Assembly: GCA_043757045.1 (NCBI GenBank)
Contig: JAYVQC010000179.1
Location: 1 to 57,344, forward strand
Reading direction: 5' to 3'
DNA length: 57,344 bases
Origin: Akkermansia sp.
GTDB lineage: Bacteria > Verrucomicrobiota > Verrucomicrobiia > Limisphaerales > SIBH01
Under the pieces are notes generated by a model. It was given only the letters and a program-made list of their open reading frames with translations. It was not told the DNA's origin and made no database searches. The position numbers were made by a program, and so were the translations under genes. Shown here one piece after another: positions 2,592-19,311 of this stretch. Position 1 is the stretch's first letter. Every line of letters starts with the position of its first letter.

Positions 2592-4115
2592 ATGTTAGCC
2601 CGGGTTTTTTCCGCAGCGGTCCAGGGTATTGAAGCCTATCCCATCGAGGTTGAAGTCAATGCTGGCTGGGGCGAAACCATCATCGTCATCGTGGGTCTGC
2701 CGGACGCGGCGGTGAAAGAATCGCGCGACCGCGTGACCACCGCCCTCGGCAACTCCGGTTTCAAATTCCCGATGGGCCGCACCACCATCAATCTCGCGCC
2801 CGCCGACGTGAAGAAGGAAGGGCCGAGCTTTGACCTGCCCATCGCCATCGGGATGCTCGCGGCCAGCGAACAGATCGAAACGGATCAACTCGACAACTTC
2901 ATCATCGTGGGCGAACTCGCGCTGACCGGCGCGGTGCGGTCGGTAAAGGGCGTGCTCTCAGTCGCGATTCGCGCGAAGGCAGAAGGGAAGTTGGGCGTGC
3001 TCGTGCCCGCCGAGAACGCCGCCGAGGCCGCCGTGGTCGAAGGGCTGCGGGTCATCCCGATTCAGAATTTGCGCGAGGCCACGGACTTCCTCGAAGGCCA
3101 GATCAAGATCGCTCCGACGCAGGTTGATCTGGTGAACATTTTCAAAAATCACGCGGACGAGGAACTCGACTTCGCCGACGTGAAGGGCCAGGAGTCCGTG
3201 AAACGCGCGCTCGAAATCGCGGCGGCGGGCGGTCACAACGTGCTCCTCATCGGCCCGCCCGGCACCGGCAAGTCCATGCTGGCCAAACGGCTGCCGAGCA
3301 TCCTGCCGCCGCTCACGCTCGCCGAGGCGCTGGAGACGACGAAGATTCACAGCATCGTGGGCCTGCTCGCGGCGGGACAGGCGCTCGTGACGCAACGTCC
3401 CTTCCGCTCGCCGCACCACACCGCGAGCGACGCCGGTTTGCTGGGCGGAAATATCAATCCCACGCCCGGAGAAATTTCCCTCGCGCACCACGGCGTGCTG
3501 TTCCTCGATGAATTGCCCGAGTTCAAACGCAGCGTGCTGGAGACGATGCGCCAGCCGTTGGAGGAGGGCCGCGTGACCATCTCGCGCGCGGCGGGCACGA
3601 TGACTTTCCCCGCGCAGTTCATGCTCATCGCCGCGATGAACCCGACGCCCGATGGCAAGATGCCGCACGAGTCGCGCAGTTCGCCGCGCGAGATTCAGAA
3701 TTATCTCGGACGCATCTCCGGCCCGTTGCTCGACCGCATTGACCTGCACGTCGAGGTGCCGCAGGTGAAGTTCCGTGACATGACCGGCGAGCGCACCGGC
3801 GAATCTTCGGCGCAAATTCGTGAGCGCGTGATCGCTGCTCGCGAGCGGCAGCAGCAGCGCTATGCCGGCACGCGCGTCACCTGCAACGCACGCATGGGCA
3901 CGCGCGAGTTGAAAAATTTCTGCGCCCTCGACGCCACCGCGAACGACCTCCTGAAGTTCGCCATGAGCGACCTGAACCTGAGCGCCCGCGCCTACGACCG
4001 CATCCTGAAAGTGGCGCGCACGATGGCCGACCTCTCCGGCCACGAAAGCATCCAGAACGACCACGTCTCGGAAGCCATCCAGTACCGCTCACTGGATCGG
4101 CAGTTGTGGACCTGA
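2592..4115 (+). CDS. comM: ComM/YifB Mg-chelatase-family AAA+ helicase
   Basis: IVGLPDAAVKESRDRV, INLAPADVKKEGPSFDLPIA, GPPGTGKS, RPFRSPHH, LFLDELPEF, LLDRIDL, LSARAYDRILKVART. Intact. Confidence 0.96.
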   Translation: MLARVFSAAVQGIEAYPIEVEVNAGWGETIIVIVGLPDAAVKESRDRVTTALGNSGFKFPMGRTTINLAPADVKKEGPSFDLPIAIGMLAASEQIETDQLDNFIIVGELALTGAVRSVKGVLSVAIRAKAEGKLGVLVPAENAAEAAVVEGLRVIPIQNLREATDFLEGQIKIAPTQVDLVNIFKNHADEELDFADVKGQESVKRALEIAAAGGHNVLLIGPPGTGKSMLAKRLPSILPPLTLAEALETTKIHSIVGLLAAGQALVTQRPFRSPHHTASDAGLLGGNINPTPGEISLAHHGVLFLDELPEFKRSVLETMRQPLEEGRVTISRAAGTMTFPAQFMLIAAMNPTPDGKMPHESRSSPREIQNYLGRISGPLLDRIDLHVEVPQVKFRDMTGERTGESSAQIRERVIAARERQQQRYAGTRVTCNARMGTRELKNFCALDATANDLLKFAMSDLNLSARAYDRILKVARTMADLSGHESIQNDHVSEAIQYRSLDRQLWT

Positions 4116-4136
4116 GATGATCAATCCCTGAAAGCC

Positions 4137-6671
4137 GTGCCGAAGAAAGAAGCCCAAGCCCGCATTCGCATCAACCGCCTGCTCGAACAGGCGGACTGGC
4201 GTTTCTTTCCCGAGGGCGGCAAGCCGGACAACATCATCTGCGAGCACCGGACGACGAAGAAAGTTTATCAGCCCGCGTTCGATCTCGGTTCGGATTTCGA
4301 CAAGGCTCCGGATGGATTCATTGATTATCTGCTGCTAAATCTGGAGCGAAAGCCGGTGGCGGTCGTGGAGGCGAAACGCGAGAGCATCAATCCGCTCGAT
4401 GGAAAAGAGCAGGCCCGCGCCTACGCGCTGAGCATGGGCGTCCACCATGTGTTCCTCTCGAACGGGCTGGTTCACTACTACTGGGATCTCCGCCACGGCA
4501 ATCCCACACGCATCTCGCATCTGCTCTCGCTCGATCAACTGGGTGAGGCAACGAAGTGGAATCCTGACCCGGCACTCCTGATCGGCACGAAGGTGGATGA
4601 GAATTACATCGCCGTTTCGCAAGACGCGGCCTGGCTGACCTACACGGCGGAACAGAAGAAGACCGCGATGGTCAACCAGAAGATCAAGTTGCTGCGTGAT
4701 TATCAGGTGGACGCCGCAGGTGCTTTGCAAAAAGCCTATGCGAAGGGGTTGCGCCGGTTCCTCTTTGAAATGGCGACCGGCACCGGCAAAACGCTGTTGA
4801 GCGCCGCCGTCACCAAGCTGTTCATCCGCTCCAACAACGCGAACCGCGTGCTGTTCCTCGTGGACCGTCTGGAATTGGAGCATCAGGCGTGGAAGAACTT
4901 CATCGCGTATCTGGCGAAGGATGCGATCTCCACCGTGATCTACAAAGAGAAGCGGGATGAGTGGATGAAGGCGGACGTGGTCATCACCACCATTCAAAGC
5001 CTGTCGGCGCGCAATCGTTACCTCGACGAATTTTCGCCCAACGATTTCCAACTCATCATCTCCGACGAAGCCCACCGCACCATCAGCGGGAACAACCGGG
5101 TCATCTTCGAATACTTCATCGGCGCGAAGCTGGGACTCACGGCCACGCCCAAGGATTACCTCAAGGGAATTGATTCGGACAAAATGCGCGAGGATGACCC
5201 GCGCGAACTGGAGCGCCGGCTCCTGCTGGACAGCTACCGCACGTTTGGCTGCGAGGACGGCCGCCCCACTTTCCGTTTCAGCCTCGTGGACGCGGTGAAT
5301 CATCGTCCACCGTATCTGGTCAACCCGAAGGCGATTGATTGCCGGACGGACATCACCACCGAACTGCTTTCAGAAAAGGGCTGGTCGGTGAAGCTGGAGA
5401 AGGACGAGGGCGAGGATGAGGAAGCCACGTTCTACAAGCGCGACTTTGAGCGGAAATTTTTCTCGCCGGAGACGAATGCCACCTTCGTTCGCACGTTCTT
5501 GCAGAACGCCAAACGTGACCCCATCACGGGCGAAATTGGCAAGACCATCATCTTCGCTGTCTCGCGCTCCCACGCGCGGAAGCTGGCGGAATTGCTTAAC
5601 ACGGAAATCGAGAAGCTCCACCCCGGCCAATACCATTCGGACTTCGCGCTGCAAATCACCTCGAACATCCCGGACGCGCAGGCGATGACGATTCAGTTCG
5701 CCAACAACAACCTGAACGGCTGGACGAAGTTCGACGCGGCGAAGATCGACTACCCCAGTTCGCGCACTCGGGTCTGCGTGACGGTCGGCATGATGACCAC
5801 GGGTTACGACTGCGAGGATTTGCTCAACGTGGTGCTGGCCCGGCCCATCTTCTCGCCCACGGATTTCATCCAGATCAAAGGCCGCGGCACCCGGCTGAAC
5901 ACGTTCAAATACAAGAACGGCGCGGACGTGGCCGAAGTCGCGAAAGACAATTTCTTCCTCTTCGATTTCTTCGCCAACTGCCAGTTCTTCGAGAAGGAGT
6001 TTGATTACGACCGCAGGATCGAGATTCCGAAAGAAGGCGGCGACGGACCCGGCGGTGGTGGTGGCATCAAGACTGACCTGACCTGGACCGGGCCGGATGA
6101 GCTGCATGAAAAGCACGAAGAACAGATCGGCCTGCAAGGGATGCGCGCGGATCGTGAGGCGTTCTCCAAGAGCTTCGAGCACCGGACGCGTGAGGAAGTC
6201 GGCAAACATCCCGAATTGACCGAGGCCATCGAGGCCGGCGACTGGCACCGGGTCGAGGCGTTCGTGCGCGATCACCTTTTCAACCAGCCGCAGGAGTTCT
6301 GGAACATCGAGAAGCTGCGCCAGGTGTATGAGGCGGATCGCCGCCTGTCGTTGCGGGAGATTTTGCAGAAGGTGTTCGGCAAGATTGACCGCTTCCCCAA
6401 CCGGCAGGAACTGGCCGAGGAGGATTTTGAGCGGTTCCTCTCCATCGAAGGCGTGGACGGCTCCAAGGTTCACGAGCTGCAAACGCTCTTCACCGCGTAT
6501 CTGCTGTATCCCGACATTCGCGCCATCGTCGATGCCGGTGAGTTCAGCCGCTTGAGCACGGATGCCCGGCTGAATTTGAAGGAACTGAAAAACCTGGGTG
6601 AACCGCAGCGCAAGCTGGCGCTCAATTACATCAAGGACACCATCGTGATTAACCGGTATCTCGCGGAATGA
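4137..6671 (+). CDS. hsdR: type I restriction enzyme, R subunit
   Basis: Nuclease motif IDY...VVEAKR, Walker A MATGTGKT, LFLVDR, DEAHR, GLTATP, QIKGRGTR. Confidence 0.92.
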   Translation: MPKKEAQARIRINRLLEQADWRFFPEGGKPDNIICEHRTTKKVYQPAFDLGSDFDKAPDGFIDYLLLNLERKPVAVVEAKRESINPLDGKEQARAYALSMGVHHVFLSNGLVHYYWDLRHGNPTRISHLLSLDQLGEATKWNPDPALLIGTKVDENYIAVSQDAAWLTYTAEQKKTAMVNQKIKLLRDYQVDAAGALQKAYAKGLRRFLFEMATGTGKTLLSAAVTKLFIRSNNANRVLFLVDRLELEHQAWKNFIAYLAKDAISTVIYKEKRDEWMKADVVITTIQSLSARNRYLDEFSPNDFQLIISDEAHRTISGNNRVIFEYFIGAKLGLTATPKDYLKGIDSDKMREDDPRELERRLLLDSYRTFGCEDGRPTFRFSLVDAVNHRPPYLVNPKAIDCRTDITTELLSEKGWSVKLEKDEGEDEEATFYKRDFERKFFSPETNATFVRTFLQNAKRDPITGEIGKTIIFAVSRSHARKLAELLNTEIEKLHPGQYHSDFALQITSNIPDAQAMTIQFANNNLNGWTKFDAAKIDYPSSRTRVCVTVGMMTTGYDCEDLLNVVLARPIFSPTDFIQIKGRGTRLNTFKYKNGADVAEVAKDNFFLFDFFANCQFFEKEFDYDRRIEIPKEGGDGPGGGGGIKTDLTWTGPDELHEKHEEQIGLQGMRADREAFSKSFEHRTREEVGKHPELTEAIEAGDWHRVEAFVRDHLFNQPQEFWNIEKLRQVYEADRRLSLREILQKVFGKIDRFPNRQELAEEDFERFLSIEGVDGSKVHELQTLFTAYLLYPDIRAIVDAGEFSRLSTDARLNLKELKNLGEPQRKLALNYIKDTIVINRYLAE

Positions 6672-6696
6672 AAGCGAACCGCACGCCATCGTTTCC

Positions 6697-6891
6697 AGCC
6701 CCATCGGGGCGCAATCCGATAGCCCAGGGCAAAGCCCTGGGTTGCGGTTCCGTTTGGGTTCAAGCCCTGAAAGGGCGACACCACGCCATCCTCCCAATGA
6801 CCGTTGTTCCGCCCTTTCAGGGCTTGCTCTCCGGTTGCCATTTTTCCCAGGGCTTTGCCCTGGGCTTTCGACTGACCGGCCTTTCAGGCCT
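6697..6891. repeat. multi-hairpin palindromic element, family D (AGCCCAGGGCAAAGCCCTGGG / AGCCCTGAAAGGGCG)
   Basis: Arms CCCAGGGCAAAGCCCTGGG and CAAGCCCTGAAAGGGCG recur in reverse complement (CGCCCTTTCAGGGCTTG, CCCAGGGCTTTGCCCTGGG). Fills the hsdR-hsdM gap. Confidence 0.85.
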
Positions 6892-6901
6892 CCGCTGACC
6901 C

Positions 6902-9820
6902 ATGCTGACCAAAGAAACCAAAGCCCGCATTGACCGCGCCCGCGACATCCTCGTCGGGCAGTTGCCGCTCCCGTCCGATCAGGTGGAACTCATCACCATC
7001 GCCCTGATCTACAAGTTCATGGACGACATTGATGAGGAGTCGCGCTCGCTCGGCGGCAAGCCGACTTTCTTCGTGGGCGAGTTGCGCGACCTGAACTGGC
7101 GCAGCCTCATCGCCAATACCCTGAGCGCCGGGGAGCGGGTCACGCGCTTCATCCAGGGCATCGAGGCGGTCAGCACGGCGAAGCACATCCCGGAACTGTT
7201 CAAGAGCATCTTCAAAAACACGTTCCTGAAGTTTCGCGACGGGCGCATCCTCAAGCTGTTCCTCGACGAGATCAACGGGTTCGCCTACGACCATTCGGAG
7301 GAACTGGGCAACGCCTTTGAATACCTGCTCGATACGATGGGCGCACAGGGCGACAACGGCCAGTTCCGCACCCCGCGCAACATCATTGATTTCATCGTCG
7401 ATGTGGTGGACCCGCAGAAGGAGGACACCATTCTTGATCCCGCGTGCGGCACGGCCGGGTTTCTCATCTCGGCCTACAAGCACATCCTGGAGGCGAACAC
7501 GAGTCCGGTGCTGCCGGGGGAAGGGAGCGCGGCTGTGTCCGAAGGACCAGCCGCAGCATGTGGAAAAGGTCAAACCGCTGCGGCTGGGTCTGCGACCACA
7601 GCCGCGCTCCGTCGCCTCGGCGATCTGCTCACCGGCGCGCAGCGCAAAAGGCTGACCGAGAACATCATCGGCTACGACATCACGCCGCTCATGTCCCGGC
7701 TCTCGCGGGTCAACATGTATCTGCACCACTTCGCGAATCCCGTGGTGCATGACTACGACACCCTGACCAACGACCAGCGCTGGGACGAGAAATACGACTG
7801 CATCCTGGCCAACCCGCCTTTCATGTCGCCCAACGGCGGCGTGAGCACGCACAGCCGGTTTCGCATCGCGGCCAAACGCACCGAGGTGCTCTTTGCCGAT
7901 TACATCCTCGAACACCTCATGCCGGGCGGGAAGGCCGGGTTCGTGGTGCCCGAGGGCATCATCTTCCAGAACAACGACGACTACGTGGCGCTGCGGAAAT
8001 GGCTGATCAACGAGGCCGGCCTGTGGGCGGTGGTGTCGCTGCCCGCGCAGATTTTCCAGCCCTACTCGGGCGTGAAGACCTCGGTGCTGCTCATTGATCG
8101 CGCGCTGGCCCGCAGGCGCAACGACGTGCTGCTGGTGAAGGTGGAGAACGACGGCTTCTCGCTGAACACCAACCGCAATCCGATTCCAGAAAATGATCTG
8201 CCCGCCGCGCTCAAGCTGCTCACCACGGCGCGGCGCGCGGATTACGTGGCGCAACTCGCGGCCTTGAACTCGCCGCTGCAACACCAGCTCGTGCCGCGCG
8301 AGGATTTCGCGAAGCTGGACGCCTACAAGGCCGGCACCGCCGCGTTCGATTTCTGCCGCAAGTTCCGCACGCGGGCCGACAAGGCGGAGAAGACGCTGGC
8401 CGAAGCGCGGGCGCAGAAGAACGCCGAGGACGCCGCGAAAGCGGAGAAGTCGCTGGCCGCCATCCGTAAAGAATTTTCCACCGTCACGGGACTGGGCGCG
8501 CTGCCGGACACGCTGGCGGAATTGAAGACGCGGTTTGAGACCATGCTCAAGGAACCGGCCATCGCCTACGGCGCAGATGCGAAGGCGGAGACGGCGCTCA
8601 CGGTGGCGCTCAAGGAGCATCTGGACAATCAGCGGGATTACAGCCTCACACTTGATCGTCAGGAAAGCCTGACGACCGTTGCAATGCTTCACGCCTTGGT
8701 GGAACTCGGGGAGATTTGTGAAATGTATCAACCTCAAACAATTTCCGGGCGCGACATGATTGCGGATGGCCCTTACCCGGTCTTTGGCGCGAACGGTTTG
8801 ATCGGTCGCTACGACAAATACAACCATGAGAAACCCGAAGTGTTGATGACATGTCGTGGTGCGACATGCGGCACAATCAATGTTTCGGAACCACGCTCTT
8901 GGATAACGGGAAATTCAATGGTCATCACTCCGAAGGATGATCGCATCGACAAAGCATTTTTGCGTTGGGTTCTAGAACTGCACCCGAACAAAGCGCCGGT
9001 GATTACCGGATCGGCACAGCCTCAGATTACTCGTACGAGTTTGACTTCGCTCCGCATTCCCCTGCCGCCGCTGGACGAGCAGCGGGCGATGGTGGCGGAA
9101 CTGGAAAGCTACCAGCGCGTGGTGGACGGCTGCACCGCTCTGCTCGCAAGCCACTGCATCCGATTTCTACCTGATCCAGATTGGCCGACTGAGGCGCTCG
9201 GTTCGATTGCCGAGTTGAAGAACGGCATCAGTTACCTGGCAGAAAACAGGGGCCGAGGAATGAAAGTGGTGAGCGTGGCCGACTTTGCTGACAATCTGAT
9301 CACGCCAATCGACGGGCTGGACGAAATCAATCCGACCGGCGTGGTGAGAAATTCCGATCTGCTCCACGACGGCGACATCCTTTTCGTTCGCTCCAACGGC
9401 AACAAGAAACTGGTCGGTCGCTCGATGCTGGTGCAACCCGGAAAAGAGCGCGTGACGCACTCCGCGTTCACCATCCGTCTCCGTTTCACGGAGCCGAATA
9501 TCGTTCCGATGTTCTACGCCCTGCTATTCAAGCATCCTGACTATCGCGAACAGTTGACCGGACGCGGTGCCAACATTTCCAATCTTTCCCAGGATTTGCT
9601 TTCGAGTCTGGTGGTGCCGATTCCACCGGTGGAAGTGCAGCAGGCAATCGTCGCCGACCTGCAACGCGAACAAGCCACGCTGGCCGGCGTCCGGGAACTG
9701 AAAGCCAAGTTCGAGGCCCGCATCACCGCGCGCCTCGCCGCCGTGTGGGGCACCGCGCCCGCCCTCGAATCAAATCCGGCCCCGGCAGAAGCCGCCGCCG
9801 AACCCGCACTCCTCACCTAA
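6902..9820 (+). CDS. fused type I N6-adenine methyltransferase / specificity subunit (HsdM-HsdS)
   Basis: GQFRTPR, DPACGTAGFL, NPPF, then two TRD + conserved-repeat units (IPLPPLDEQ, VPIPPVEVQ). Confidence 0.92.
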   Translation: MLTKETKARIDRARDILVGQLPLPSDQVELITIALIYKFMDDIDEESRSLGGKPTFFVGELRDLNWRSLIANTLSAGERVTRFIQGIEAVSTAKHIPELFKSIFKNTFLKFRDGRILKLFLDEINGFAYDHSEELGNAFEYLLDTMGAQGDNGQFRTPRNIIDFIVDVVDPQKEDTILDPACGTAGFLISAYKHILEANTSPVLPGEGSAAVSEGPAAACGKGQTAAAGSATTAALRRLGDLLTGAQRKRLTENIIGYDITPLMSRLSRVNMYLHHFANPVVHDYDTLTNDQRWDEKYDCILANPPFMSPNGGVSTHSRFRIAAKRTEVLFADYILEHLMPGGKAGFVVPEGIIFQNNDDYVALRKWLINEAGLWAVVSLPAQIFQPYSGVKTSVLLIDRALARRRNDVLLVKVENDGFSLNTNRNPIPENDLPAALKLLTTARRADYVAQLAALNSPLQHQLVPREDFAKLDAYKAGTAAFDFCRKFRTRADKAEKTLAEARAQKNAEDAAKAEKSLAAIRKEFSTVTGLGALPDTLAELKTRFETMLKEPAIAYGADAKAETALTVALKEHLDNQRDYSLTLDRQESLTTVAMLHALVELGEICEMYQPQTISGRDMIADGPYPVFGANGLIGRYDKYNHEKPEVLMTCRGATCGTINVSEPRSWITGNSMVITPKDDRIDKAFLRWVLELHPNKAPVITGSAQPQITRTSLTSLRIPLPPLDEQRAMVAELESYQRVVDGCTALLASHCIRFLPDPDWPTEALGSIAELKNGISYLAENRGRGMKVVSVADFADNLITPIDGLDEINPTGVVRNSDLLHDGDILFVRSNGNKKLVGRSMLVQPGKERVTHSAFTIRLRFTEPNIVPMFYALLFKHPDYREQLTGRGANISNLSQDLLSSLVVPIPPVEVQQAIVADLQREQATLAGVRELKAKFEARITARLAAVWGTAPALESNPAPAEAAAEPALLT
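7524..7610. repeat. REPIN-like element, family B (GGAGCGCGG...CCGCGCTCC), in frame inside hsdM
   Basis: Arms GGAGCGCGGCTGTG-n9-CCAGCCGCAGC and its reverse complement. 87 bp = 29 codons. Confidence 0.85.
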
Positions 9821-9842
9821 ACCTTCCAAGGAGAACTCTGAA

Positions 9843-10301
9843 ATGCCTTTCCGCTTTCCTTCCCATCGGCTGCACGAAATCGTCAAGGCGCGGAAAGTGG
9901 CCGGTGCGGGACAACGGGCCGAGTTCGAGAGCGAAGGTTCCAAAGGCAAGAAACTGTCGCTGACGCTGGAGTTGCCCGAGGGGCAGATGATGAGCCTGCG
10001 CTTCCTGGTGGCCTGCCACGACGCGAGCCAGCCGGAGAGTTACACGGCGGCGCTGGTGCTGGAAGGCGAGCGCGTCCGGGGCATTGATCATTCCAAGATC
10101 CGGCGGCTCAAACGCTACAAGGAGCACATTCCCAAGGGCTGGCACGAGAACGTGATTGACCCGAACCGGGCGACGGACGATGACGACCGAAACCGGCATG
10201 TGCCGTTGCAGGATTTTGCACCCACGGACTTGAAACACTTTCTCCACCTCGTGGCGAAGAAGTGGCATATTGAACTCGAAATGGAGAGCTTGTTACTGTG
10301 A
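9843..10301 (+). CDS. hypothetical protein, DUF6978-like partner of DUF1828
   Basis: 152 aa, GGAGA RBS upstream, RGID...WHE motif. Stop overlaps the next start (GTGA). Family assignment is from recalled gene context. Confidence 0.6.
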   Translation: MPFRFPSHRLHEIVKARKVAGAGQRAEFESEGSKGKKLSLTLELPEGQMMSLRFLVACHDASQPESYTAALVLEGERVRGIDHSKIRRLKRYKEHIPKGWHENVIDPNRATDDDDRNRHVPLQDFAPTDLKHFLHLVAKKWHIELEMESLLL

Positions 10302-11101
10302 AAACCATCAACACCATTCACACCCTGGCCACGGAGTGCCGCGCGGCCCTGAATTGCTTTTGGGGCGAGCAGTTGGCGGTGGAATCGACGCGCACAGGCG
10401 TGAGCATCGCCCTGCCACTGATGTATCCGGATGGCTTGCAGGTGGTGCTCGCGGTGCAGCCGGTCTCCGCGACCCGGGCCGTGGTCTCCGACGAAGGCCG
10501 GACGCTGGGGCAATTCTTCAACGCGGGCTTCAACGTGGACGCGAGGGCGAAGCAGTCGCACACGTTGTTGCAGGAGCGGATCCGGGCCTTTGAACTGAGC
10601 AAGGATGGCTTCGAGTTGAAGAAGGAGATCCGGCTGCCGGCGGATGGCATCGACCTGCATCTGTTTGGCGAAGCGCTGGTGAGCATCTCGCATCTCATCT
10701 ACCGGCACGAGCCGGAGAGTTTCGTCGAGAGCGCCGCCGACCGGACGGTGCGGCAGGTTTTCAAGGATCGAAAGGTGGTGCCGCTGGAGAACGTGGCGCT
10801 CGAAGGGCGGGTGGAGAAGAAGATCAAGGTGGACTACCTCGTCACCGGGAAGCACCGGCTGGCGATGGAAGTCATCAAGCGGCGCGGCTCCGATCTCGGC
10901 TACATCGAGCGCTGGGCGTGGCGCTGGACGGATTTGAAGAATCGGGACGGCACGCTCCTCAACGCGATGGTGTACGACCCGGACGTGCAGGACTACGACC
11001 AGACGGCGCTGGAGATTGGTCGATCCGTGTGCGACGTGTTCTGCCCCTATTTCGAGACGGAACGGATTCACAAGTTGGTGCAGCGGGCGGTGAATAATTG
11101 A
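10298..11101 (+). CDS. DUF1828/DUF1829-like protein
   Basis: I.LP..YPDG.Q......VSDEG.TL is a DUF1828-like N-terminus. C-terminal VD(YLV)...EV.K resembles a restriction-endonuclease-like fold. Confidence 0.75.
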   Translation: MKTINTIHTLATECRAALNCFWGEQLAVESTRTGVSIALPLMYPDGLQVVLAVQPVSATRAVVSDEGRTLGQFFNAGFNVDARAKQSHTLLQERIRAFELSKDGFELKKEIRLPADGIDLHLFGEALVSISHLIYRHEPESFVESAADRTVRQVFKDRKVVPLENVALEGRVEKKIKVDYLVTGKHRLAMEVIKRRGSDLGYIERWAWRWTDLKNRDGTLLNAMVYDPDVQDYDQTALEIGRSVCDVFCPYFETERIHKLVQRAVNN

Positions 11102-11114
11102 ATCGCAGAAAACC

Positions 11115-11546
11115 ATGAACACTCGGGAAGAAAAAGATTTCGCGCTGCGCCAAGTGGCAGCGATGGATCGTTTCCTTTCGTGGGCCGGAGCCGACCCGCT
11201 GATGGGACCGGGGCTGAGACAACGGCGCGAGGAATTTGAACGACTGGCGAAGGGGTTACCTGCGGCGGAGCGCGTGGCGGCGGTGGAGACAAAGCCGGAG
11301 AAGGTGGAACTGGCCGGGCAATTTCGCGGGGCCACGCTCGACACTTGGCGCTTCGACTTCCGAACGGACGCAGGGGCGAGCATTTCCGGTCGGCTGGCTG
11401 ATGACGTGAGCGAAGAAACCGCAGCGGCCATGAACCAATTCACAAACCAGGAATGCGTGGGGAAATTCAACCGCATCCAGGTGATCGCGCGTGGTGGTCT
11501 GCCGAAAGTGCGATACGAACTGCTTTCCGTTTCGGCCTCCGCGTAG
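11115..11546 (+). CDS. hypothetical protein
   Basis: 143-aa ORF, ATG 13 nt after the previous stop. Helical N-terminus, beta-rich C-terminus. Confidence 0.65.
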   Translation: MNTREEKDFALRQVAAMDRFLSWAGADPLMGPGLRQRREEFERLAKGLPAAERVAAVETKPEKVELAGQFRGATLDTWRFDFRTDAGASISGRLADDVSEETAAAMNQFTNQECVGKFNRIQVIARGGLPKVRYELLSVSASA

Positions 11547-11658
11547 AGGGCCAAGCAATAGCGACGGTCAGGTTTAGAACGCTCCCTCCGATTTTGTTTC
11601 AAGTTTGCGCGCTGCCGCTGAGTTTTGTCTTCCCCCCTCGAAAACACCTTCGCCTGAC

Positions 11659-11813
11659 CGGCGGCACGTTTCACCTTGCCGCGATTCGGCTTGCCCGCTA
11701 TCCACGCACGCATGGAATCCCGGGAAGCATTTGTCGTTTTGAACATGGTCGAGCACGTCGGGCCGGTGCGCGTGCGGCAGTTGCTCCAGCATTTCGGTGA
11801 CGCGGTTTCAATT
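11659..11813 (+). repeat. diverged direct repeat of the dprA promoter and first 34 codons (copy 1)
   Basis: Matches 12884..13038 at a constant offset of 1225 bp. Encodes MESREAFVVLNMVEHVGPVRVRQLLQHFGDAVSI from ATG 11712. Confidence 0.95.
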
Positions 11814-11861
11814 GCTCTGAACTTTCGTGCGTCCTATCGTCCAGGCAGAAAGAGTTCCACG

Positions 11862-12089
11862 ATGCCAAACCAAGAAAGCGACATGCAAAAGCTGGAGAAC
11901 CAGTTCCCATCGGCCTCGGGTTCGGCCTTTGCCGCCGCCCGTGAGCAGGTGCTGGCCTCGGGGCAGAGCGTGCTGCAATCCGAGCACGGGGTGATTTACG
12001 AGGTCTTCCCCAATGGGACGCGCCGCCGCGTGAAGAACATTGAGCCGCCGACTCCGGTGGTGGCCGGGAGCAAGATTCAGATCGATTGA
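11862..12089 (+). CDS. small putative antitoxin (also in frame with the upstream DprA fragment from 11712)
   Basis: 75-aa MPNQES...AFAAAREQVLASGQSVLQSEHGVIYEVFPNG. Stop overlaps the start of the P-loop gene. Confidence 0.65.
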   Translation: MPNQESDMQKLENQFPSASGSAFAAAREQVLASGQSVLQSEHGVIYEVFPNGTRRRVKNIEPPTPVVAGSKIQID

Positions 12090-12832
12090 GCGCTGTCACC
12101 CCGCGATTGCGTATGTTCGCCGGGCCGAACGGCTCCGGCAAAAGCACGCTCAAGTCCGTGCTGCCGATCGAACTGCTGGGCGTTTATTTGAATCCCGACG
12201 AATTGGAGAAGGAAATACGCACGACGGGTTTTCTGGAGCCGGCTGCTTATCGCGTCACCACCACGGCGGAGGAGATTCTGGAACATTTCCGCACTTCGTC
12301 GTTTCTCCACAGTGCCGGTTTGTCGGGCGGGGCGGCGCAACTCCAGTTCACCGAGGGACGATTGCAGTTTGGCAGCGTGGAGGTGAACGCCTACTTCGCC
12401 TCGGTGGCCGCGGATTTCCTGCGGCAGCGACTGCTCGCCCGAAAAATCCCGTTCACTCTCGAGACGGTGATGTCGTCGCCGGACAAGGTGCGCCTGCTGG
12501 AACAAGCGCGGGGGTTGGGCTACCGGACCTATCTCTACTACATCGCCACGGACGATCCGGAGATCAACATCTCCCGCGTGCGAACGCGGGTGAGCCAGGG
12601 TGGCCACGACGTGCCGGAGGACAAAATTGTGAGCCGCTACCATCGCTCGTTGGATTTGCTGATGCCGGCGGTTCGCCAGACGCACCGCGCCTATGTTTTC
12701 GACAACTCCAGCCATGCTGAGAACCGGACGTGGCTGGCGGAGGTCACCAATGGCCGGACGCTGGAGTTGAAAACAGACCGCATACCCGCCTGGTTTAAGC
12801 GGGCGGTTCTGGACAAGATTGCCGGTGCGTGA
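12086..12832 (+). CDS. zeta-toxin-like / AAA P-loop kinase (COG4185-like)
   Basis: MFAGPNGSGKST, YLNPDE, FTLETVMS, RV..RV.QGGHDVPE.KI..RY.RS, FDNS. Confidence 0.88.
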   Translation: MSAVTPRLRMFAGPNGSGKSTLKSVLPIELLGVYLNPDELEKEIRTTGFLEPAAYRVTTTAEEILEHFRTSSFLHSAGLSGGAAQLQFTEGRLQFGSVEVNAYFASVAADFLRQRLLARKIPFTLETVMSSPDKVRLLEQARGLGYRTYLYYIATDDPEINISRVRTRVSQGGHDVPEDKIVSRYHRSLDLLMPAVRQTHRAYVFDNSSHAENRTWLAEVTNGRTLELKTDRIPAWFKRAVLDKIAGA

Positions 12833-12883
12833 GTATTCCCGGCCTTCCCTGGTCTGTGCCCCGTTCCTAACTCCCCGCTGGAT

Positions 12884-13038
12884 CGGTGGCACGTTTCACC
12901 TTGCCGCGATTCTGCGCCGCCGCTATCCACGCAAGCATGGAATCCCGGGAAGCTTTTGTCGTCTTGAACATGGTGGAACACGTCGGGCCGGTGCGTGTGC
13001 GGCAGTTGCTCCAGCATTTTGGGGACGCGGCTTCCATT
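12884..13038 (+). repeat. direct repeat copy 2 (functional dprA promoter and 5' end)
   Basis: Counterpart of 11659..11813. Confidence 0.95.
12901..12929 (+). promoter_or_regulatory. putative sigma70-type leaderless promoter of dprA
   Basis: TTGCCG-17 nt-TATCCA, 7 nt before ATG 12937, no Shine-Dalgarno. Both boxes are conserved in the duplicate at 11676. Confidence 0.5.
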
Positions 13039-14043
13039 CTCAAAGCCTCGAAGCAGCAACTGATGTGCGTGCGCGGGATTGGTGAGGATACGGCGGAGGC
13101 CATTGCGAATTGGGAGAAGAACGTGGACCTCGCGGCGGAGTTGAAACGCTGCGAGGAATTCGGCTGCCACATCGTGACGCAGGACGACGTGGAGTATCCC
13201 GAGATGCTGCGGCAAATTTACGACCCGCCCCTCGTGCTCTACGTGAAGGGCGCACTCACGGCGGCAGACAAGAATGGCGTGGCCATCGTCGGCTCCCGGC
13301 AGACGACGCACTACGGGATCGAGGTGGCGCGCAAGCTCGGCTACCAGCTCGCCTACGTGGGCGTCACGGTCGTGAGCGGCGGCGCGCGCGGCATTGATAC
13401 GGCGGCGCATCAGGGCGCATTGAGCGCGAAGGGGCGGACGATTTGTGTCTTGGGCACGGGCATCAACATTGTGTTCCCGCCGGAGAACGCGGAACTGTTC
13501 GCGCGCATTTCCGAGAGCGGCGCGGTCATCTCGCAGTATCCGTTCAACCGCAAGGCGGACAAACAATCCTTCGCCATTCGCAACCGTATCGTGGCCGGCA
13601 TGACGCTCGGCACCGTCGTCGTCGAGGCCAACTTGACGAGCGGCGCGCTCATTACGTCGAACTTCGCCATTGAGTATGGGCGGCAGGTTTTTGCGGTGCC
13701 GGGGCGGATTGATTCGCCGCGCAGCAAGGGCTGCCACGACTTGATCAAGAAAGGCGCGAAGCTCTGCGAGGGCGCGGAGGATATTCTGAGCGAGTTCGAG
13801 TATTTGTTTCCCGCCAGCAACCGTCCGCCCACCGTGAATGAAACCGGCGTGCTCCCCGCGCTCACGCTTTCGGAGAACGAGCAGAAAGTTTATGACGCGC
13901 TCGACAAGGAGCCGACGCCGATGGACGACGTGATTCGTGCGTGTGGCCTGCCCGCGTCGGCGGTGTCAGTGGCGTTGCTCAGTCTGGAAATGAAGCGCGC
14001 GGTGCGGCAGGTGCCGGGAAAATTATTTTTGCGGAACACGTAG
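12937..14043 (+). CDS. dprA: DNA-processing protein DprA
   Basis: YP..L.QI.DPP.VLY, VAIVGSR, VSGGARGID, RNRIVAG, VVEA...SGALIT, GRQVFAVPG, C-terminal winged helix. Start moved to ATG 12937. Confidence 0.96.
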   Translation: MESREAFVVLNMVEHVGPVRVRQLLQHFGDAASILKASKQQLMCVRGIGEDTAEAIANWEKNVDLAAELKRCEEFGCHIVTQDDVEYPEMLRQIYDPPLVLYVKGALTAADKNGVAIVGSRQTTHYGIEVARKLGYQLAYVGVTVVSGGARGIDTAAHQGALSAKGRTICVLGTGINIVFPPENAELFARISESGAVISQYPFNRKADKQSFAIRNRIVAGMTLGTVVVEANLTSGALITSNFAIEYGRQVFAVPGRIDSPRSKGCHDLIKKGAKLCEGAEDILSEFEYLFPASNRPPTVNETGVLPALTLSENEQKVYDALDKEPTPMDDVIRACGLPASAVSVALLSLEMKRAVRQVPGKLFLRNT

Positions 14044-14062
14044 TTATCCGCGCTCCAGCGTG

Positions 14063-14122
14063 AGTTGGAGTCCAAGCTTCAGCTTGCTCCGGCGGGGACA
14101 CGCTGAAGCGTGAACTCCAACT
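14063..14122. repeat. palindromic element, family E (AGTTGGAGT...ACTCCAACT)
   Basis: GTTGGAGTCCAAGCTTCAGCTTG and CACGCTGAAGCGTGAACTCCAAC form an imperfect inverted pair after dprA. Confidence 0.75.
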
Positions 14123-14166
14123 AATGGTTTGAACGTCCCCGCCTCACAACCCTAGCCTCGCCGCCC

Positions 14167-15441
14167 GTGACTTTTCGCCACCGCATCCTGCTCGACCGCC
14201 TGCTCGCGGTACCCTCGTGCTTGGCGTGCGATCTGGCGGCGCGGCTGCTGGGGAAAATTCTCCACCGTGATCATTCCCTTTCCCCGGCGGGCACGCGCGA
14301 GATTATCGTGGGCAAACTCGTGGGCATGGGCAGCATTCTTCAAGCGACGCCCTTGCTGCGCGCCTTGAAGAAACAGTTTCCCGAAGCGCGGCTGACGTTC
14401 CTCACGCTGGAGAGCAATCGCGGGCTGGTGAGCCGCCTGGAGCATGTGGATGAGTTGCTGTGCCTGGATGACCGGCGGCCCGGGATTTTTTTTTTAACCA
14501 CCTTGCGGGCGCTCGGGAAAATCATCCGCCGGCGGCCGGATCACTATTTTGATTTGGAGGTTTATTCCGGTTTCACGTCGTTGCTGTCGCTGTTCAGTCT
14601 CGCGCGGAACCGGCTGGGCTTTTGCCGCCATTCGAGCCGGTTCAAGCGCGGCCTGTTCACCCACCTCGTTTATTTCAACACGCGCATGGCGGTGCGCCGC
14701 CTGTATCTGCAACTCGGCTGCGTGGCGGGCGTGCCGACGGATGCGCCGGAGCAACTGGGCGGCATCCGCATCGAGCCGGCGGAGCGCGACGCGGTGCGCG
14801 AAAAGCTGGCGCAGCTCGGCCTGCCGCCCGGCCGGCCTTTCGTGTTGGTAAATCCCAACGCCTCGGACTTGCTCATCGAGCGGCGCTGGCCGGAGGCGCA
14901 TGTGGTCGGGGCTGTGACGCGGTTGGTGCGCGCGGGGCAGAGCGTGGTGCTGATGGGCGGCCCTTCGGAGACCGCGCATGTTCAAACCATTTGCGCGCAA
15001 CTGCCTGCCGAGACGCAGGGCCGCGTGTTCAACGTGGCGGGGCAATTGTCCTTGGGCGAAGCCTTCGCGCTCATTGAAGCCGCCGCGTGCGTGCTGACGA
15101 ATGACACCGGGCCGATGCACATGGCCTTCGCGTTGGAACGTCCGACGGTGTGCCTGTTCGGCCCGGTGGACCCGGCGCATTACGGCATGACGGCGGCGAA
15201 CATCGTGACCTTGTCCGCGCCGGTGCCGTGCAGCCCGTGCGTGCATGAGATTGACGAGCCGCCGTGCCACGGCAACAACGTGTGCATGCAACGGCTGCAA
15301 CCTGATTTCGTCGTGAGCCATGTGCTCGCGCTGCTGGAGCGGCGCGCGGCCGGCTCCAGTCCGCGCCTGCCGCTCGTGTGGCAGGCGGAGAACGGTCCGC
15401 CGCTGGGCCTCGTGCAGCGGCACTTGTCGCAGGAAAACTAG
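14167..15441 (+). CDS. glycosyltransferase family 9 (heptosyltransferase-like)
   Basis: GMGS.L.ATP.LRALK..FP.A, R.WP, TNDTGPMHMA.A...PTV.LFGP, C.PC...C..M. Confidence 0.88.
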   Translation: MTFRHRILLDRLLAVPSCLACDLAARLLGKILHRDHSLSPAGTREIIVGKLVGMGSILQATPLLRALKKQFPEARLTFLTLESNRGLVSRLEHVDELLCLDDRRPGIFFLTTLRALGKIIRRRPDHYFDLEVYSGFTSLLSLFSLARNRLGFCRHSSRFKRGLFTHLVYFNTRMAVRRLYLQLGCVAGVPTDAPEQLGGIRIEPAERDAVREKLAQLGLPPGRPFVLVNPNASDLLIERRWPEAHVVGAVTRLVRAGQSVVLMGGPSETAHVQTICAQLPAETQGRVFNVAGQLSLGEAFALIEAAACVLTNDTGPMHMAFALERPTVCLFGPVDPAHYGMTAANIVTLSAPVPCSPCVHEIDEPPCHGNNVCMQRLQPDFVVSHVLALLERRAAGSSPRLPLVWQAENGPPLGLVQRHLSQEN

Positions 15442-16314
15442 ATGAACACACCGGTTTGCGAAGTGTGCGGCGGCACCGATTTCCGCCACCTGTTCCGCAA
15501 GGACGGGCACGAGTTTTATCGCTGCCGTTCCTGCCAGTTGATCCGCAGCCAGCCGCAGCCCACGGACGAGACGCTGGGAAACATTTACGGCGGAAAATAT
15601 TACAACGCCTGGGGCGTGCAGCACGACGCGGAGCGCGTGCTGGCGTTGAAGAAGGCGACCTTCCGGCAGCATGTCTTCAGCGCGGTGAACCTGCCGCCCG
15701 GCGCGCGGGTGCTCGATTGCGGCGCGGCCTTCGGCACGCTGATGACGGCGGCGCAGGAGATGGGATGGGAACCGTACGGCATCGAGCTGGCTGCCGAGGC
15801 GGCGGCGAAAATCGCGGAACGATTTGGCGCGGAGCGCGTGTTCTCCGGCCCCTTCGAGCAGGCGGTGTTTCCGCAACTGGGCGCGGCGGCGTTCGACGCG
15901 GTGTTCATGTGCGATTTCATCGAGCATGTGCGCGACCCGGTGGCGGTGTTGAAAAAGGCCGCGAGCCTGCTGCGTCCGGGCGGCTGTCTGGTCATGACCA
16001 CGCCGGACGGCGGCTCGCTCTCGTGCCGCGCGCTGGGCGCGAGCTGGCCGCATTACAAGGTCGAGCACATTTTCTATTTCAACCGCCGGAACGCCGCGGC
16101 GTTGCTGGAACGCGCCGGCTTCCAACTCGAGCAGACGGGGGCCGCGCACAAAGTTTTGAGCTTCGACTACATCCAGCACCAGTTTAACACCTACCCACGC
16201 GCGGTGGTCACTCCGGCGCTCAACGCGCTGGCGACCCTGAGCACCGCCGCCGCGCGGAGCCGTCCACGCTCCTTCTCTTTTGGCGAGATGATTGTCGTGG
16301 GGAAAAAATTGTGA
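15442..16314 (+). CDS. class I SAM methyltransferase with N-terminal Zn ribbon
   Basis: CxxC...CxxC, VLDCGAAFG, IEHVRDP, LRPGG. Confidence 0.88.
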   Translation: MNTPVCEVCGGTDFRHLFRKDGHEFYRCRSCQLIRSQPQPTDETLGNIYGGKYYNAWGVQHDAERVLALKKATFRQHVFSAVNLPPGARVLDCGAAFGTLMTAAQEMGWEPYGIELAAEAAAKIAERFGAERVFSGPFEQAVFPQLGAAAFDAVFMCDFIEHVRDPVAVLKKAASLLRPGGCLVMTTPDGGSLSCRALGASWPHYKVEHIFYFNRRNAAALLERAGFQLEQTGAAHKVLSFDYIQHQFNTYPRAVVTPALNALATLSTAAARSRPRSFSFGEMIVVGKKL

Positions 16315-17624
16315 GCGAAGCGCTCAGCAAAACATCTTCCCCCGCCCGCGCTTCCTGGACCAGCGAGGTCGCCGCGCGCCGCCTGCTGTGGACGATCTTT
16401 TTTCTGTTCGCGCTGGTCCAGGTGTGGCGGCTCCATTCCCTCGGCAACGATCTGGGGACGGACGTGCATTCGGAGTCCGACGCGCTGCGTTCGGCGGACG
16501 CGTATGCCCGCGAGGGGCTGTGGTCGCATCATGGGCTGCCGAGGATTTTGCACGGCGCGCTGTTTCCCAAGGTCGGCACGGTTCTCGACCACACGGACGC
16601 CAGCGGGCTGGTGCCGGAAAAATTTCGGAAGGGTTTCCCGGCCGGCCTGGCTCATCGCGACGCGTGGGTTTACACGCATTATCCGCCGGGGCCGAATCTG
16701 CTCTGCGGGCTGTGGGCGAAGATTTGCGGGCTGGAACGGCTCTGGGTGTTGCGGCTGTTTCCGCTGGTTTTCGGACTGGGCGCGGTCGCGTTTTTTTTCT
16801 GGGCGCTGGCGCGGGCTTTTGATCCAGCGCGGGCGCTCGTCTTGGCCGGGGCGTGCGCGGTGTTGCCCATGTTTGGCGCTTACTTGATCGGGCTGCACTA
16901 TCAAGGCTACTCGCTGGCGCTGCTGCTGGTGCAACTAGCCTTGCTGCTGCGGATTTTCAGGGGCCGGAACCGCTGCGGTGCCGGGCTGGGCGCGGCGTTT
17001 TTCACGCTGGGCTTTCTCCAAGGCTGGCTCTCGTTTGATCAATTTTTTGTGGTGAGCCTGCTGGCCGTGCCGTTTTGGTGCCTGCGCCGCGAGGAGGGAG
17101 ACGCGCCTTCGTTCAAACTGCTGCTGTGGCTGGTGGCGTTGCCGTCGGCGGGTTTTATTTTGGCTCACGGCCTGCATTTTCTCCAAGTCGCGGCGGAACT
17201 GGGCGGACTGCGGGCGGCGCTGGGCGAGTTCCACGCCACCGCCGCTGAGCGTGCGGGCACGACCGGCGGCGAATTCACGCGTTATCATCAGTTCCTGGGC
17301 CGGGCCGTGTATCTTTATTTTCGCGACACGGTGAAACCCACGAACGCGCATTTTGGACCGTTGATCCTGCTCGCCGCCGGGTGGGTCACGGTGCTGGCCG
17401 CTCGCGGCCGGAAACTGCCCTGGCGCGCGCTGACCGCGGCGTTGGTCATCTCCGTTCTTTGGATGCTCTTCATGCCGCAGCATGCGGTGAGCAACCTGCA
17501 CGTCTCCATCCGCCATCTGTTCGTGTTCTATTTTTTCCTGCTGCTGGTGGTGGCGGGCGGCGGGACGAGGCGGTCGATGGCTCCCCCACAGACTGATTTG
17601 TCCGTTCGTTCAACCGGTGGTTGA
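16311..17624 (+). CDS. multi-pass membrane protein, possibly a GT-C-type glycosyltransferase
   Basis: Many hydrophobic helices and a YTHYPPGP loop motif. Overlaps the previous stop. Confidence 0.6.
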   Translation: MSEALSKTSSPARASWTSEVAARRLLWTIFFLFALVQVWRLHSLGNDLGTDVHSESDALRSADAYAREGLWSHHGLPRILHGALFPKVGTVLDHTDASGLVPEKFRKGFPAGLAHRDAWVYTHYPPGPNLLCGLWAKICGLERLWVLRLFPLVFGLGAVAFFFWALARAFDPARALVLAGACAVLPMFGAYLIGLHYQGYSLALLLVQLALLLRIFRGRNRCGAGLGAAFFTLGFLQGWLSFDQFFVVSLLAVPFWCLRREEGDAPSFKLLLWLVALPSAGFILAHGLHFLQVAAELGGLRAALGEFHATAAERAGTTGGEFTRYHQFLGRAVYLYFRDTVKPTNAHFGPLILLAAGWVTVLAARGRKLPWRALTAALVISVLWMLFMPQHAVSNLHVSIRHLFVFYFFLLLVVAGGGTRRSMAPPQTDLSVRSTGG

Positions 17625-19142
17625 AGAGGCGGGCTGCAGCGAGAGCGTGCGGCGAAACACGACGGGTTGCGGGCTGCGGGCCGCCTTGCGGCAGACACCT
17701 TTGTTCAAGGCCACGCTCAGGGCGATCGTGCCGGTGAAGGTCGTGATCTCACCGCCGAAATCGCCGAAAGCCGTCATGAAGAACAGCGTGCGCCCGATAA
17801 AATACGCGAGCAGAAAACGGTTGATGGTCCGCAATTCCTCGTCGCCGTTCCGGTAATTGAAATAGAGAGAACGTATCGAGACTCCAAGGAAGATGAGGAA
17901 CGCCACGCAGCCGGGCGCACCGAAAGGCACATACAAGGTCAGTGGCCCGCTGTGATAGCTGCCCGACTGCAAGGCCACCTCGTGCTGGGAGACGCGATGC
18001 CGGTGCTGCGCCTCCTGGACGAGATACAAGTCGGTGGGGTTGAGCGTGTAGCCTTTGCCGAGCCAGAAATACTTCGGCAAATCCGGCAGCAAGGCCCGCC
18101 AAATTTGCAGACGCCACTCGATGGACGAGTCCGCGTTGGCCCGGACGACCGGGTTGATGTCGAGGGGCAGAAAACTCAGCGAGCGCTGCATCGAGAAAGG
18201 CAGATTCGGAGCGAGAGGAATCAGCGCGGCGAAGGCCAGCAGCCCCAGCCCGCACAGCACGGGAAACAGACGGGATCGGAACAAGCCTTCCAGATAAAAC
18301 AAAATCAGAAAAATAAGGCCAACCAGCACAATCACGGACCGGTAGCCACCCATCAAGCCCAGGCCCAGCAGTCCGATCAGCAGCAATAGACGCCACCATC
18401 TTGAGAACACCCCCCGGATGCCATGCACGCACAGCATGTAAAAACAAAACGCCACCGTCCCCGTGCTGAAACCCGCCACCCGCGACATCGAGCCGGACGT
18501 TTCCGAGATGGCCTGCACGCTGGCGAAGCCGGCGGGGAAGACAAGATACAAAAAATAAAAGGACGGACCCGCAAAGTAGATGAGGCTGCTGACAATGCTG
18601 ATCAGCGTGGACAGAAAAAACAGGCCCACATACAGCTTCGCCTTCTCGACCGGGATGCTCAGGCTGGTGATGCCAAAATACCCGACGATGCCGGCCAGCA
18701 GCAGGATGTATGTTTTCCCGCCCACTGTGGAACTGCCCATGATGTTCAGGCCGATGCCTCCGCGCAACCAGGCCGTGACCAGAATGACGGCTCCAAGCAG
18801 CAGCAGGGAAAAAGTGATGGCAGGCGCTGAAACGAACGCCTGACGTTTGAGAATGATCCGATGCAAAACCGCAACACTCACCGCGATCAGGGACATGAAC
18901 ATCCACAGCGCCGGCTGGCCCGGCAGAAAAAACAGCGTAATGAAGGACGACCAACTGAAAATAAGCACCGGGTGATGCCACTTCAGCAATAACGGCAGCA
19001 GCAGCACAAAGATGATCCCCGCGAAGACCGCGAAGGAGGTTTTGTCGAAGTCCGCCAAGTCCACCGTCATCCACCCCACCATCACTGCCAGCGGCAGGAT
19101 GACGGCATAGATGACCAAGGTTCGGAGCAAGGTGCTGTTCAC
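17610..19142 (-). CDS. O-antigen polymerase/ligase-like membrane protein (Wzy/WaaL-like)
   Basis: About 12 TM segments, S.EWRLQIW, WLGKG, YHSG...FG..G. Likely GTG start at 19142 after a TACCGT -10-like box. Confidence 0.75.
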   Translation of the reverse strand: MNSTLLRTLVIYAVILPLAVMVGWMTVDLADFDKTSFAVFAGIIFVLLLPLLLKWHHPVLIFSWSSFITLFFLPGQPALWMFMSLIAVSVAVLHRIILKRQAFVSAPAITFSLLLLGAVILVTAWLRGGIGLNIMGSSTVGGKTYILLLAGIVGYFGITSLSIPVEKAKLYVGLFFLSTLISIVSSLIYFAGPSFYFLYLVFPAGFASVQAISETSGSMSRVAGFSTGTVAFCFYMLCVHGIRGVFSRWWRLLLLIGLLGLGLMGGYRSVIVLVGLIFLILFYLEGLFRSRLFPVLCGLGLLAFAALIPLAPNLPFSMQRSLSFLPLDINPVVRANADSSIEWRLQIWRALLPDLPKYFWLGKGYTLNPTDLYLVQEAQHRHRVSQHEVALQSGSYHSGPLTLYVPFGAPGCVAFLIFLGVSIRSLYFNYRNGDEELRTINRFLLAYFIGRTLFFMTAFGDFGGEITTFTGTIALSVALNKGVCRKAARSPQPVVFRRTLSLQPASSTTG

Positions 19143-19311
19143 AAGGCCGCGACGGTAGCGGAGCGCGCGCGGCCCGACAAAAAGATTCTTCAACTCCAGT
19201 TTGCTGAATCGCTGTTTGCTTTTTTCCAGAGCTTTATGGGATCAATCCGCCGCTCACGACAGCAACCAAACGCCGCGGTGCATCGCGGCCGGCCTGGCGT
19301 GCCACGACAAC

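Follow-up and report, generated by a model that had tools for sequence, protein, structure and literature searches.

How does the start of dprA come to stand twice in one bacterial genome, on either side of a toxin-antitoxin (TA) pair? The question is raised by a 57,344-nucleotide (nt) stretch of DNA, called the window here (positions 1 to 57,344 of contig JAYVQC010000179.1, assembly GCA_043757045.1, Akkermansia sp., GTDB class Verrucomicrobiia, order Limisphaerales), in which two diverged direct repeats of the dprA promoter and first 34 codons bracket a zeta-like TA pair. The structure is probably a recombination scar at an insertion hotspot between comM and dprA, where cassettes have been stacked by exchange between lineages. 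The features on which the argument turns are as follows.

11659-11813, plus strand: copy 1, with the dprA promoter, ATG 11712 and codons 1-34
11676-11704, plus strand: copy 1 promoter, assigned by conservation (TTGCCG at 11676-11681, a 17-nt spacer and TATCCA at 11699-11704)
11862-12089, plus strand: putative antitoxin, 75 amino acids (aa), matching no Pfam, NCBIfam or PADLOC family and adjoining the toxin in 29 of 29 loci
12086-12832, plus strand: putative zeta/PezT-like P-loop kinase toxin, 248 aa, whose TTG start overlaps the antitoxin stop
12884-13038, plus strand: copy 2, with promoter boxes TTGCCG at 12901-12906 and TATCCA at 12924-12929, ATG 12937 and codons 1-34 of the intact dprA
12937-14043, plus strand: intact dprA, 368 aa (Pfam DNA_processg_A at 258 bits, DprA_WH and HHH), 97% identical in aa sequence to that of the closest relative, genome G009

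Two diverged alleles of the dprA start

A repeat search of the window returned direct repeats at 11651-11813 and 12876-13038, spaced 1225 base pairs (bp) apart and 88% identical. BLAST with copy 2 against the whole genome (4.9 Mb in 291 contigs) matched exactly two places, copy 1 being recovered as 11656-11813 at 89% identity. In the alignment, homology between the copies starts at about 11659/12884 and ends sharply after 11813/13038, so that each copy consists of 53 nt of upstream sequence followed by dprA codons 1-34. The 34 codons counted from ATG 11712 and from ATG 12937 differ at nine positions; eight of the differences are synonymous, all in third position, and the ninth is V32A. At least eight synonymous changes among nine randomly placed substitutions are expected with P = 5.5e-5 (200,000 placements). 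The 61 nt upstream of the copies carry a further 10 differences, and the longest runs of exact identity between the copies are 25 and 23 nt. Every element named in the original prediction, that is, the repeats, the codon differences, the reading frame and the TTGCTC-17-TATCGT boxes discussed below, is present.

We then set the divergence of the copies against that between species. Copy 1 and copy 2 agree at 93 of 102 coding positions (dS 0.43, dN 0.013) and differ at 7 of 53 promoter positions. Compared with G009, copy 1 agrees at 94 of 102 coding positions (dS 0.37) with 4 of 53 promoter differences, and copy 2 at 92 of 102 (dS 0.40) with 10 of 53. Between this genome and G009, dS is 0.41 for comM and 0.34 for dprA. 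Because the dS between the copies matches this species-level divergence, copy 1 is best read as a truncated allele whose sequence was shaped as functional dprA in a different lineage, at species-level distance. The proposal that both copies evolved as coding dprA, and that copy 1 is not a decayed local duplicate, thus agrees with the measured values (dS 0.43 against 0.34-0.41). Copy 1 retains an intact promoter and ATG. It has no frameshift or stop and bears a single private substitution, so that the event is probably recent.

The gap between comM and dprA is filled differently in related genomes

A DprA search of 40 related genomes gave the closest relatives, and longer stretches of six of them were compared with the window. 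On the left, the locus is bounded by comM, which adjoins dprA in G008, G004, G005 and G009 and forms the conserved left flank. The arrangements are listed below.

2592-4115, plus strand, this window: comM, encoding a YifB-type Mg-chelatase-like AAA ATPase (Pfam Mg_chelatase, ChlI and Mg_chelatase_C; NCBIfam TIGR00368, 643 bits)
G008 and G004: comM, 12 nt, dprA
G005: comM, a 589-nt insert (63-aa gene and PemK/MazF toxin), dprA
G009: comM, 16 nt, the same zeta-like pair as here (85% nt identity), dprA promoter, dprA; without copy 1 and without restriction genes
this genome: comM stop, a 7.5-kb island (4116-11658), copy 1, the pair, copy 2 with dprA

Island and copy 1 together are found only in this genome, and in G009, G008, G004 and G005 comM is followed by dprA or by TA genes within 12-590 nt. 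The comparison indicates that comM-dprA is the ancestral order and that the gap between the two genes is an insertion hotspot, filled differently from lineage to lineage. Adjacency of TA genes and dprA in relatives, which had been suggested as a check, is borne out by G009, the closest relative, in which the pair lies directly upstream of dprA. The unit of change, by comparison, must be drawn larger than originally noted: G009 already has the order comM-TA-dprA, and it is the island with copy 1 that is unique here. In G005, the MazEF-type pair lies at 8516-9038 of locus L035 and consists of a 63-aa gene and a 117-aa PemK/MazF toxin.

Metagenomic sequences add to this variety. A metagenome contig encoding a DprA of 97.6% identity shows yet another upstream context. 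An exact scan with a 35-mer from the conserved dprA 5' end returned two metagenome contigs and five species genomes that were already known; neither of the two contigs has comM, the pair or the island upstream of dprA, and one has a kinase-like and an ECF-sigma-like gene there, the latter read from its translation without a family search.

The island itself (4116-11658, plus strand), annotated from Pfam, NCBIfam and PADLOC matches, contains the following genes.

4137-6671: hsdR, type I restriction subunit
6902-9820: fused hsdM-hsdS
9843-10301: 152-aa open reading frame
10298-11101: DUF1828-like protein, matching the PADLOC candidate defence family PDC-M24B (E 1.3e-9)
11115-11546: 143-aa open reading frame, followed by a 112-nt spacer

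The gap between hsdR and hsdM-hsdS also holds a match to the Rfam Acido-Lenti-1 RNA motif (6697-6741, minus strand; 38.9 bits against a gathering score of 37).

A probable recombination scar and its direction

Related lineages either leave the hotspot empty or fill it with a MazEF-type pair, with the zeta-like pair or with the type I restriction-modification island. Under the reading that we favour, DNA of one lineage would have recombined into another by a homologous crossover in one conserved flank, while its other end would have been joined illegitimately through the dinucleotide TT, linking dprA nucleotide 102 to the -35 box of the TA promoter. The outcome would be stacking and not a swap, in the order comM, island, copy 1, pair and copy 2 with the whole dprA. 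We infer natural transformation with homology-facilitated illegitimate recombination as the route. The junction has the corresponding form.

11811-11817, plus strand: putative illegitimate junction; dprA sequence ends in ...TCAATT (11813) and the -35 box TTGCTC begins at 11812

When the joint is read against copy 2 and against the left edge of the pair in G009, TT is the only sequence common to both sides. One illegitimate junction at about 11813 had been predicted, and the sharp end of homology at 11811-11813 agrees with it. The junction also creates the palindrome CAATTG at 11809-11814, probably by chance.

Two directions of transfer can be envisaged. In the first, a genome with the order comM-island-dprA would have taken up the pair together with a dprA 5' end from a G009-like donor; in the second, a G009-like genome would have taken up the island with a donor dprA promoter and 34 codons, anchored in comM. 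Between the pair with copy 2 and the island with copy 1 as the incoming segment, our judgement is nearly even and leans only slightly to the former. Capture of the TA genes with a new dprA start, as first proposed, corresponds to the first direction and is about as probable as capture of the island and copy 1. Two weak hints point to the first direction. At synonymous sites the toxin has diverged more from G009 (pS 0.45) than have comM (0.31) and dprA (0.27), and the promoter of copy 2 is further from that of G009 than is the promoter of copy 1.

Several observations weigh against this account or limit it. The hints on direction are weak, the difference between 10 and 4 of 53 promoter positions is not significant, and the higher synonymous divergence of the toxin could reflect gene-specific constraint. 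An island directly before a dprA promoter without the pair is absent from the 400 other genomes of the order and from the metagenome scan; a DNA search with 9843-11658 against 401 genomes of the order gave distant matches only, the best at 64% identity over 956 nt, and none beside dprA. The phylogeny of the copies that had been called for was built, and with 102 nt and seven of eight inner branches unsupported it neither separates nor joins them. Sliding-window identity and counts of private substitutions along dprA and comM revealed no recombination breakpoint. The 2 nt common to both sides of the joint are fewer than the 3-10 bp quoted for such segments (PMC6382021), natural competence of the organism is only implied by intact comM and dprA, and the read evidence is confined to contigs that a single study's short reads yielded.

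Read evidence and alternative origins

That last body of evidence bears on whether the arrangement could be a chimera in which two strains or species, one with island-dprA and one with pair-dprA, were merged at the conserved dprA 5' end. In favour of such an origin, the genome is a metagenome assembly in 291 contigs. We examined Logan contigs from four sediment-metagenome runs of a single study, two of which may be the source sample. A first contig covers 11000-11786 and a second covers 11757-13355 (two runs) or 11757-13017 (two runs), both with 0 mismatches to the window. In all four runs the contigs break inside copy 1, at 11757-11786, a 30-mer that recurs unchanged in several related species. 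The samples also contain further dprA alleles, with depths of about 2 and 47, which accounts for a branch in the assembly graph at this point. What lies beyond the break is informative: the second contig runs from the final 57 nt of copy 1, private bases included, across the junction and the two TA genes into copy 2, which is whole in two runs and reaches 13016/13017 of 13038 in the other two. The 30-nt overlap between the two contigs carries copy-1-specific bases, and in each run the two have almost the same depth (first contig 8.7-9.9, second contig 9.0-10.7), with no alternative continuation of at least 95% identity at similar depth among those listed. Since in 4 of 4 runs one independently built contig carries the junction and the pair with both copies (copy 1 in part), we regard a chimeric assembly as very unlikely; the check for a strain chimera, posed by the original prediction, was made on these contigs with that outcome.

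We likewise find it highly improbable that copy 1 arose by an old tandem duplication within the lineage and was kept by selection on a fusion or on an extra promoter. Such selection would account for the intact promoter and ATG of copy 1, for its lack of frameshifts and stops and for its being in frame with the antitoxin, but an open frame of this kind, continuing through 16 stop-free codons, is expected by chance in about 1 of 6 cases by our estimate. G009 has the pair at the same place without copy 1, and the duplication would need to date back to the species split, with a later loss in G009. A 34-residue fragment of the helix-hairpin-helix domain is unlikely to have been held to one aa change for so long, and 24 aligned antitoxin homologues are 73-80 aa long and begin at their own start.

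Site-specific integration into the dprA 5' end by an element bringing a replacement 5' end, as known for e14 or phage 21 in icd, typically leaves direct repeats of a gene end that differ synonymously, one of them belonging to an intact gene, as is seen here, but it is extremely improbable as the origin because the 1225 bp between the repeats contain only the two TA genes, Pfam, NCBIfam and PADLOC scans of the island and of the genes between and beside the repeats hit no integrase or transposase family, no identical core exceeds 25 nt, G009 has the same pair without a displaced copy, and the G005 cassette occupies the hotspot without such a repeat.

The scar might in principle be reversible. 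Excision of the 1225-bp unit by RecA, as had been suggested, is conceivable, but with identity runs of at most 25 nt it would be inefficient. No joint skipping the 1225 bp was present among the Logan contigs, which drop rare variants and are hence uninformative on an excised form.

The dprA promoter, the pair's promoter and the fused frame

TTGC...TA(T/A)(C/T)(C/T) boxes ending 7-9 nt before the ATG are found in 13 of 25 dprA loci of relatives across the order, and at both copies in the window the -10 box ends 7 nt before the ATG. Conservation thus identifies the 53 nt as the ancestral dprA promoter. The short distance from -10 box to ATG suggests to us a leaderless dprA mRNA in the order. The motif was also considered as a regulon-wide box and rejected, since a strict version of it has no match in the 4.9-Mb genome outside the two copies.

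The pair brings a promoter of its own, and the open frame that crosses the junction overlaps it.

11812-11840, plus strand: putative promoter of the pair, TTGCTC-17-TATCGT, conserved in G009 and homologous loci
11712-12089, plus strand: open 125-aa frame of DprA residues 1-34, 16 junction-encoded residues and the antitoxin

At the same place G009 has TTGCCG-17-TATCTT, and TTGCTN...TAT boxes recur at equal distance in homologous modules from unrelated contexts; the pair starts at the same -35 box in this genome and in G009. The original prediction had noted TTGCTC-17-TATCGT at the junction; these boxes are not made by the junction and belong to the pair. An E. coli-type promoter scan, built on the E. 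coli consensus, called none of the three promoters, which are assigned by conservation alone, and a terminator scan of the plus strand between genes called none.

Starting from ATG 11712, the frame stays open past the antitoxin start codon (ATG 11862) and ends with the stop at 12089. The DprA-antitoxin fusion envisaged earlier does not hold as the native form, given that the 24 aligned homologues of 73-80 aa align from the antitoxin's own start, and the DprA(1-34)-antitoxin frame probably arose by chance when the junction formed. Likely as a by-product, the copy 1 promoter may contribute read-through transcripts and an antitoxin lengthened at its N-terminus to 125 aa. An active copy 1 promoter giving a leaderless mRNA and a translated DprA(1-34)-antitoxin fusion, by which antitoxin supply would be tied to the dprA signal, strikes us as very doubtful. 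If it were true, the state of the zeta-like toxin would follow the dprA-inducing signal, and a TA module would be wired to competence between two competence genes. As it stands, dprA is intact behind its own promoter, and the pair retains a start codon and a promoter of its own. A link to ShosTA, which has a DprA-like antitoxin, was considered and set aside as unrelated on the part of the ShosTA description available, as only 34 N-terminal DprA residues are involved here.

A putative zeta-like kinase toxin with a small partner

The toxin matches Pfam Zeta_toxin (PF06414) with 34.8 bits (cut-off 22.3), over residues 104-189 only, and AAA_33 with 28.4 bits (cut-off 27). Its Walker A P-loop, G13 P14 N15 G16 S17 G18 K19 S20, is invariant in 20 of 20 aligned homologues. 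The AlphaFold model has a pLDDT of 91.5, and its top Foldseek matches are 2p5t (PezT), 4z8t (AvrRxo1-ORF1) and 3q8x and 1gvn (zeta), with E of 6e-6 to 5e-5, TM of 0.48-0.54 and sequence identity of 12-14%. Comparison with PDB sequences by phmmer returned 0 matches, a profile search gave matches at the level of the P-loop only, and no NCBIfam or PADLOC family was assigned to the toxin. The antitoxin matched no family in Pfam, NCBIfam or PADLOC, including epsilon and PezA (E up to 0.01 or 0.001).

Homologues of the toxin at E <= 1e-10 occur in 101 of 401 genomes of the order, and a small gene lies directly upstream of the toxin in 29 of the 29 best loci examined; antitoxin homologues (24 aligned) are of uniform size, as given above. 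The pair is patchy across the 401 genomes and stands beside dprA only in this genome and in G009. On plasmids, homologues of the toxin reach 57.6% identity and carry the annotation zeta toxin family protein. Because of the constant adjacency, the patchy spread and the plasmid homologues, the pair is considered mobile; the evidence from these genomes identifies it as a genuine, self-contained, mobile module, putatively a zeta-like TA system, with an antitoxin family that appears to be undescribed.

Structure prediction of the toxin with the antitoxin gave a complex score of 0.77, and the best of three controls scored 0.00; the mark set for this score is reached by 116 of 157 solved complexes and by 2 of 215 mismatched pairs. 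Three runs agreed in at least 94% of contacts, with a partner pLDDT of at least 85. In the predicted complex the antitoxin covers toxin residues 18-30, around the P-loop. The model supports binding of the toxin by the antitoxin, although solved zeta/epsilon complexes may influence it.

Homologues of the module (loci L042, L048, L051 and others) often follow immediately on a type I hsdS gene or on a short remnant of an hsdS 3' end. The hsdS C-terminus in such loci reads ...LLTGKTRLL, and the last two Leu codons of hsdS form the -35 box of the module. The sequence TTGCTCTGA at the window junction (11812-11820) looks like such an hsdS remnant.

Relation to known systems

Homology-facilitated illegitimate recombination during transformation is known from Acinetobacter baylyi, Streptococcus pneumoniae and Pseudomonas stutzeri (PMC6382021). 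As far as that process is described in the source, the locus resembles it in that one end is allelic or homologous while the other would be joined without homology over a few common bases, and in that foreign genes are added beside a conserved anchor gene. It differs in having only 2 nt at the joint and in keeping both 5' alleles of the anchor as a 155-bp diverged repeat; moreover, the process is here read from sequence alone, with competence implied by comM and dprA. Within the literature covered on illegitimate recombination, comM/dprA hotspots and zeta toxin/hsdS, mainly abstracts, no description of the arrangement was found.

The site also resembles defence and TA hotspots between core genes: it is empty in 2 of 5 genomes with the comM-dprA order, and the other 3 of 5 hold a MazEF-type pair, a zeta-like pair, or an island with a zeta-like pair. 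Unlike such hotspots, it lies between two competence genes and in Verrucomicrobiota; and unlike hotspot swaps by double homologous recombination, the event left behind an allelic duplicate of a gene end. The comM-dprA hotspot fits the notion of competence genes as gathering points for mobile or selfish modules.

The pair, for its part, is like epsilon/zeta (1gvn, 3q8x), PezAT (2p5t) and AvrRxo1-ORF1:ORF2 (4z8t) in its P-loop kinase fold, for which these are the best structural matches, and in a small upstream partner that overlaps the toxin start and is predicted to lie over the P-loop region. It is unlike them in its identity of 12-14%, in the partial Pfam match and in a 75-aa antitoxin without a family; kinase activity on a cell-wall or nucleotide precursor, and toxicity relieved by the partner, are putative here.

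The process is thus a known one and not a new kind of system. Its interest is that the locus would offer a natural, base-by-base example of accessory cassettes exchanged and stacked at a core-gene hotspot, with the dprA-start duplicate recording both a donor at about sister-species distance and one end joined without homology. It also defines a zeta-like toxin with a new 75-aa partner, widespread in the order and on proteobacterial plasmids and often behind hsdS.

Further variable DNA in the window

To the left of comM, a TIR-domain protein (112-765) and a MUG113/Sel1-repeat protein (779-1522) have third-position GC contents of 0.55 and 0.44, against about 0.8 nearby. Homology to G009 starts only at 1528, and 112-1522 looks like another acquired, defence-like islet.

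Downstream of dprA, 14044-17600 encodes a GT9 heptosyltransferase, a methyltransferase and a PMT_2-like gene. These three genes are missing in G008, G004, G005 and the metagenome contig L082, so that variable DNA lies to either side of dprA. In those relatives dprA is directly followed by a 527-aa gene, the counterpart of which lies at 17610-19193 of the window, on the minus strand.

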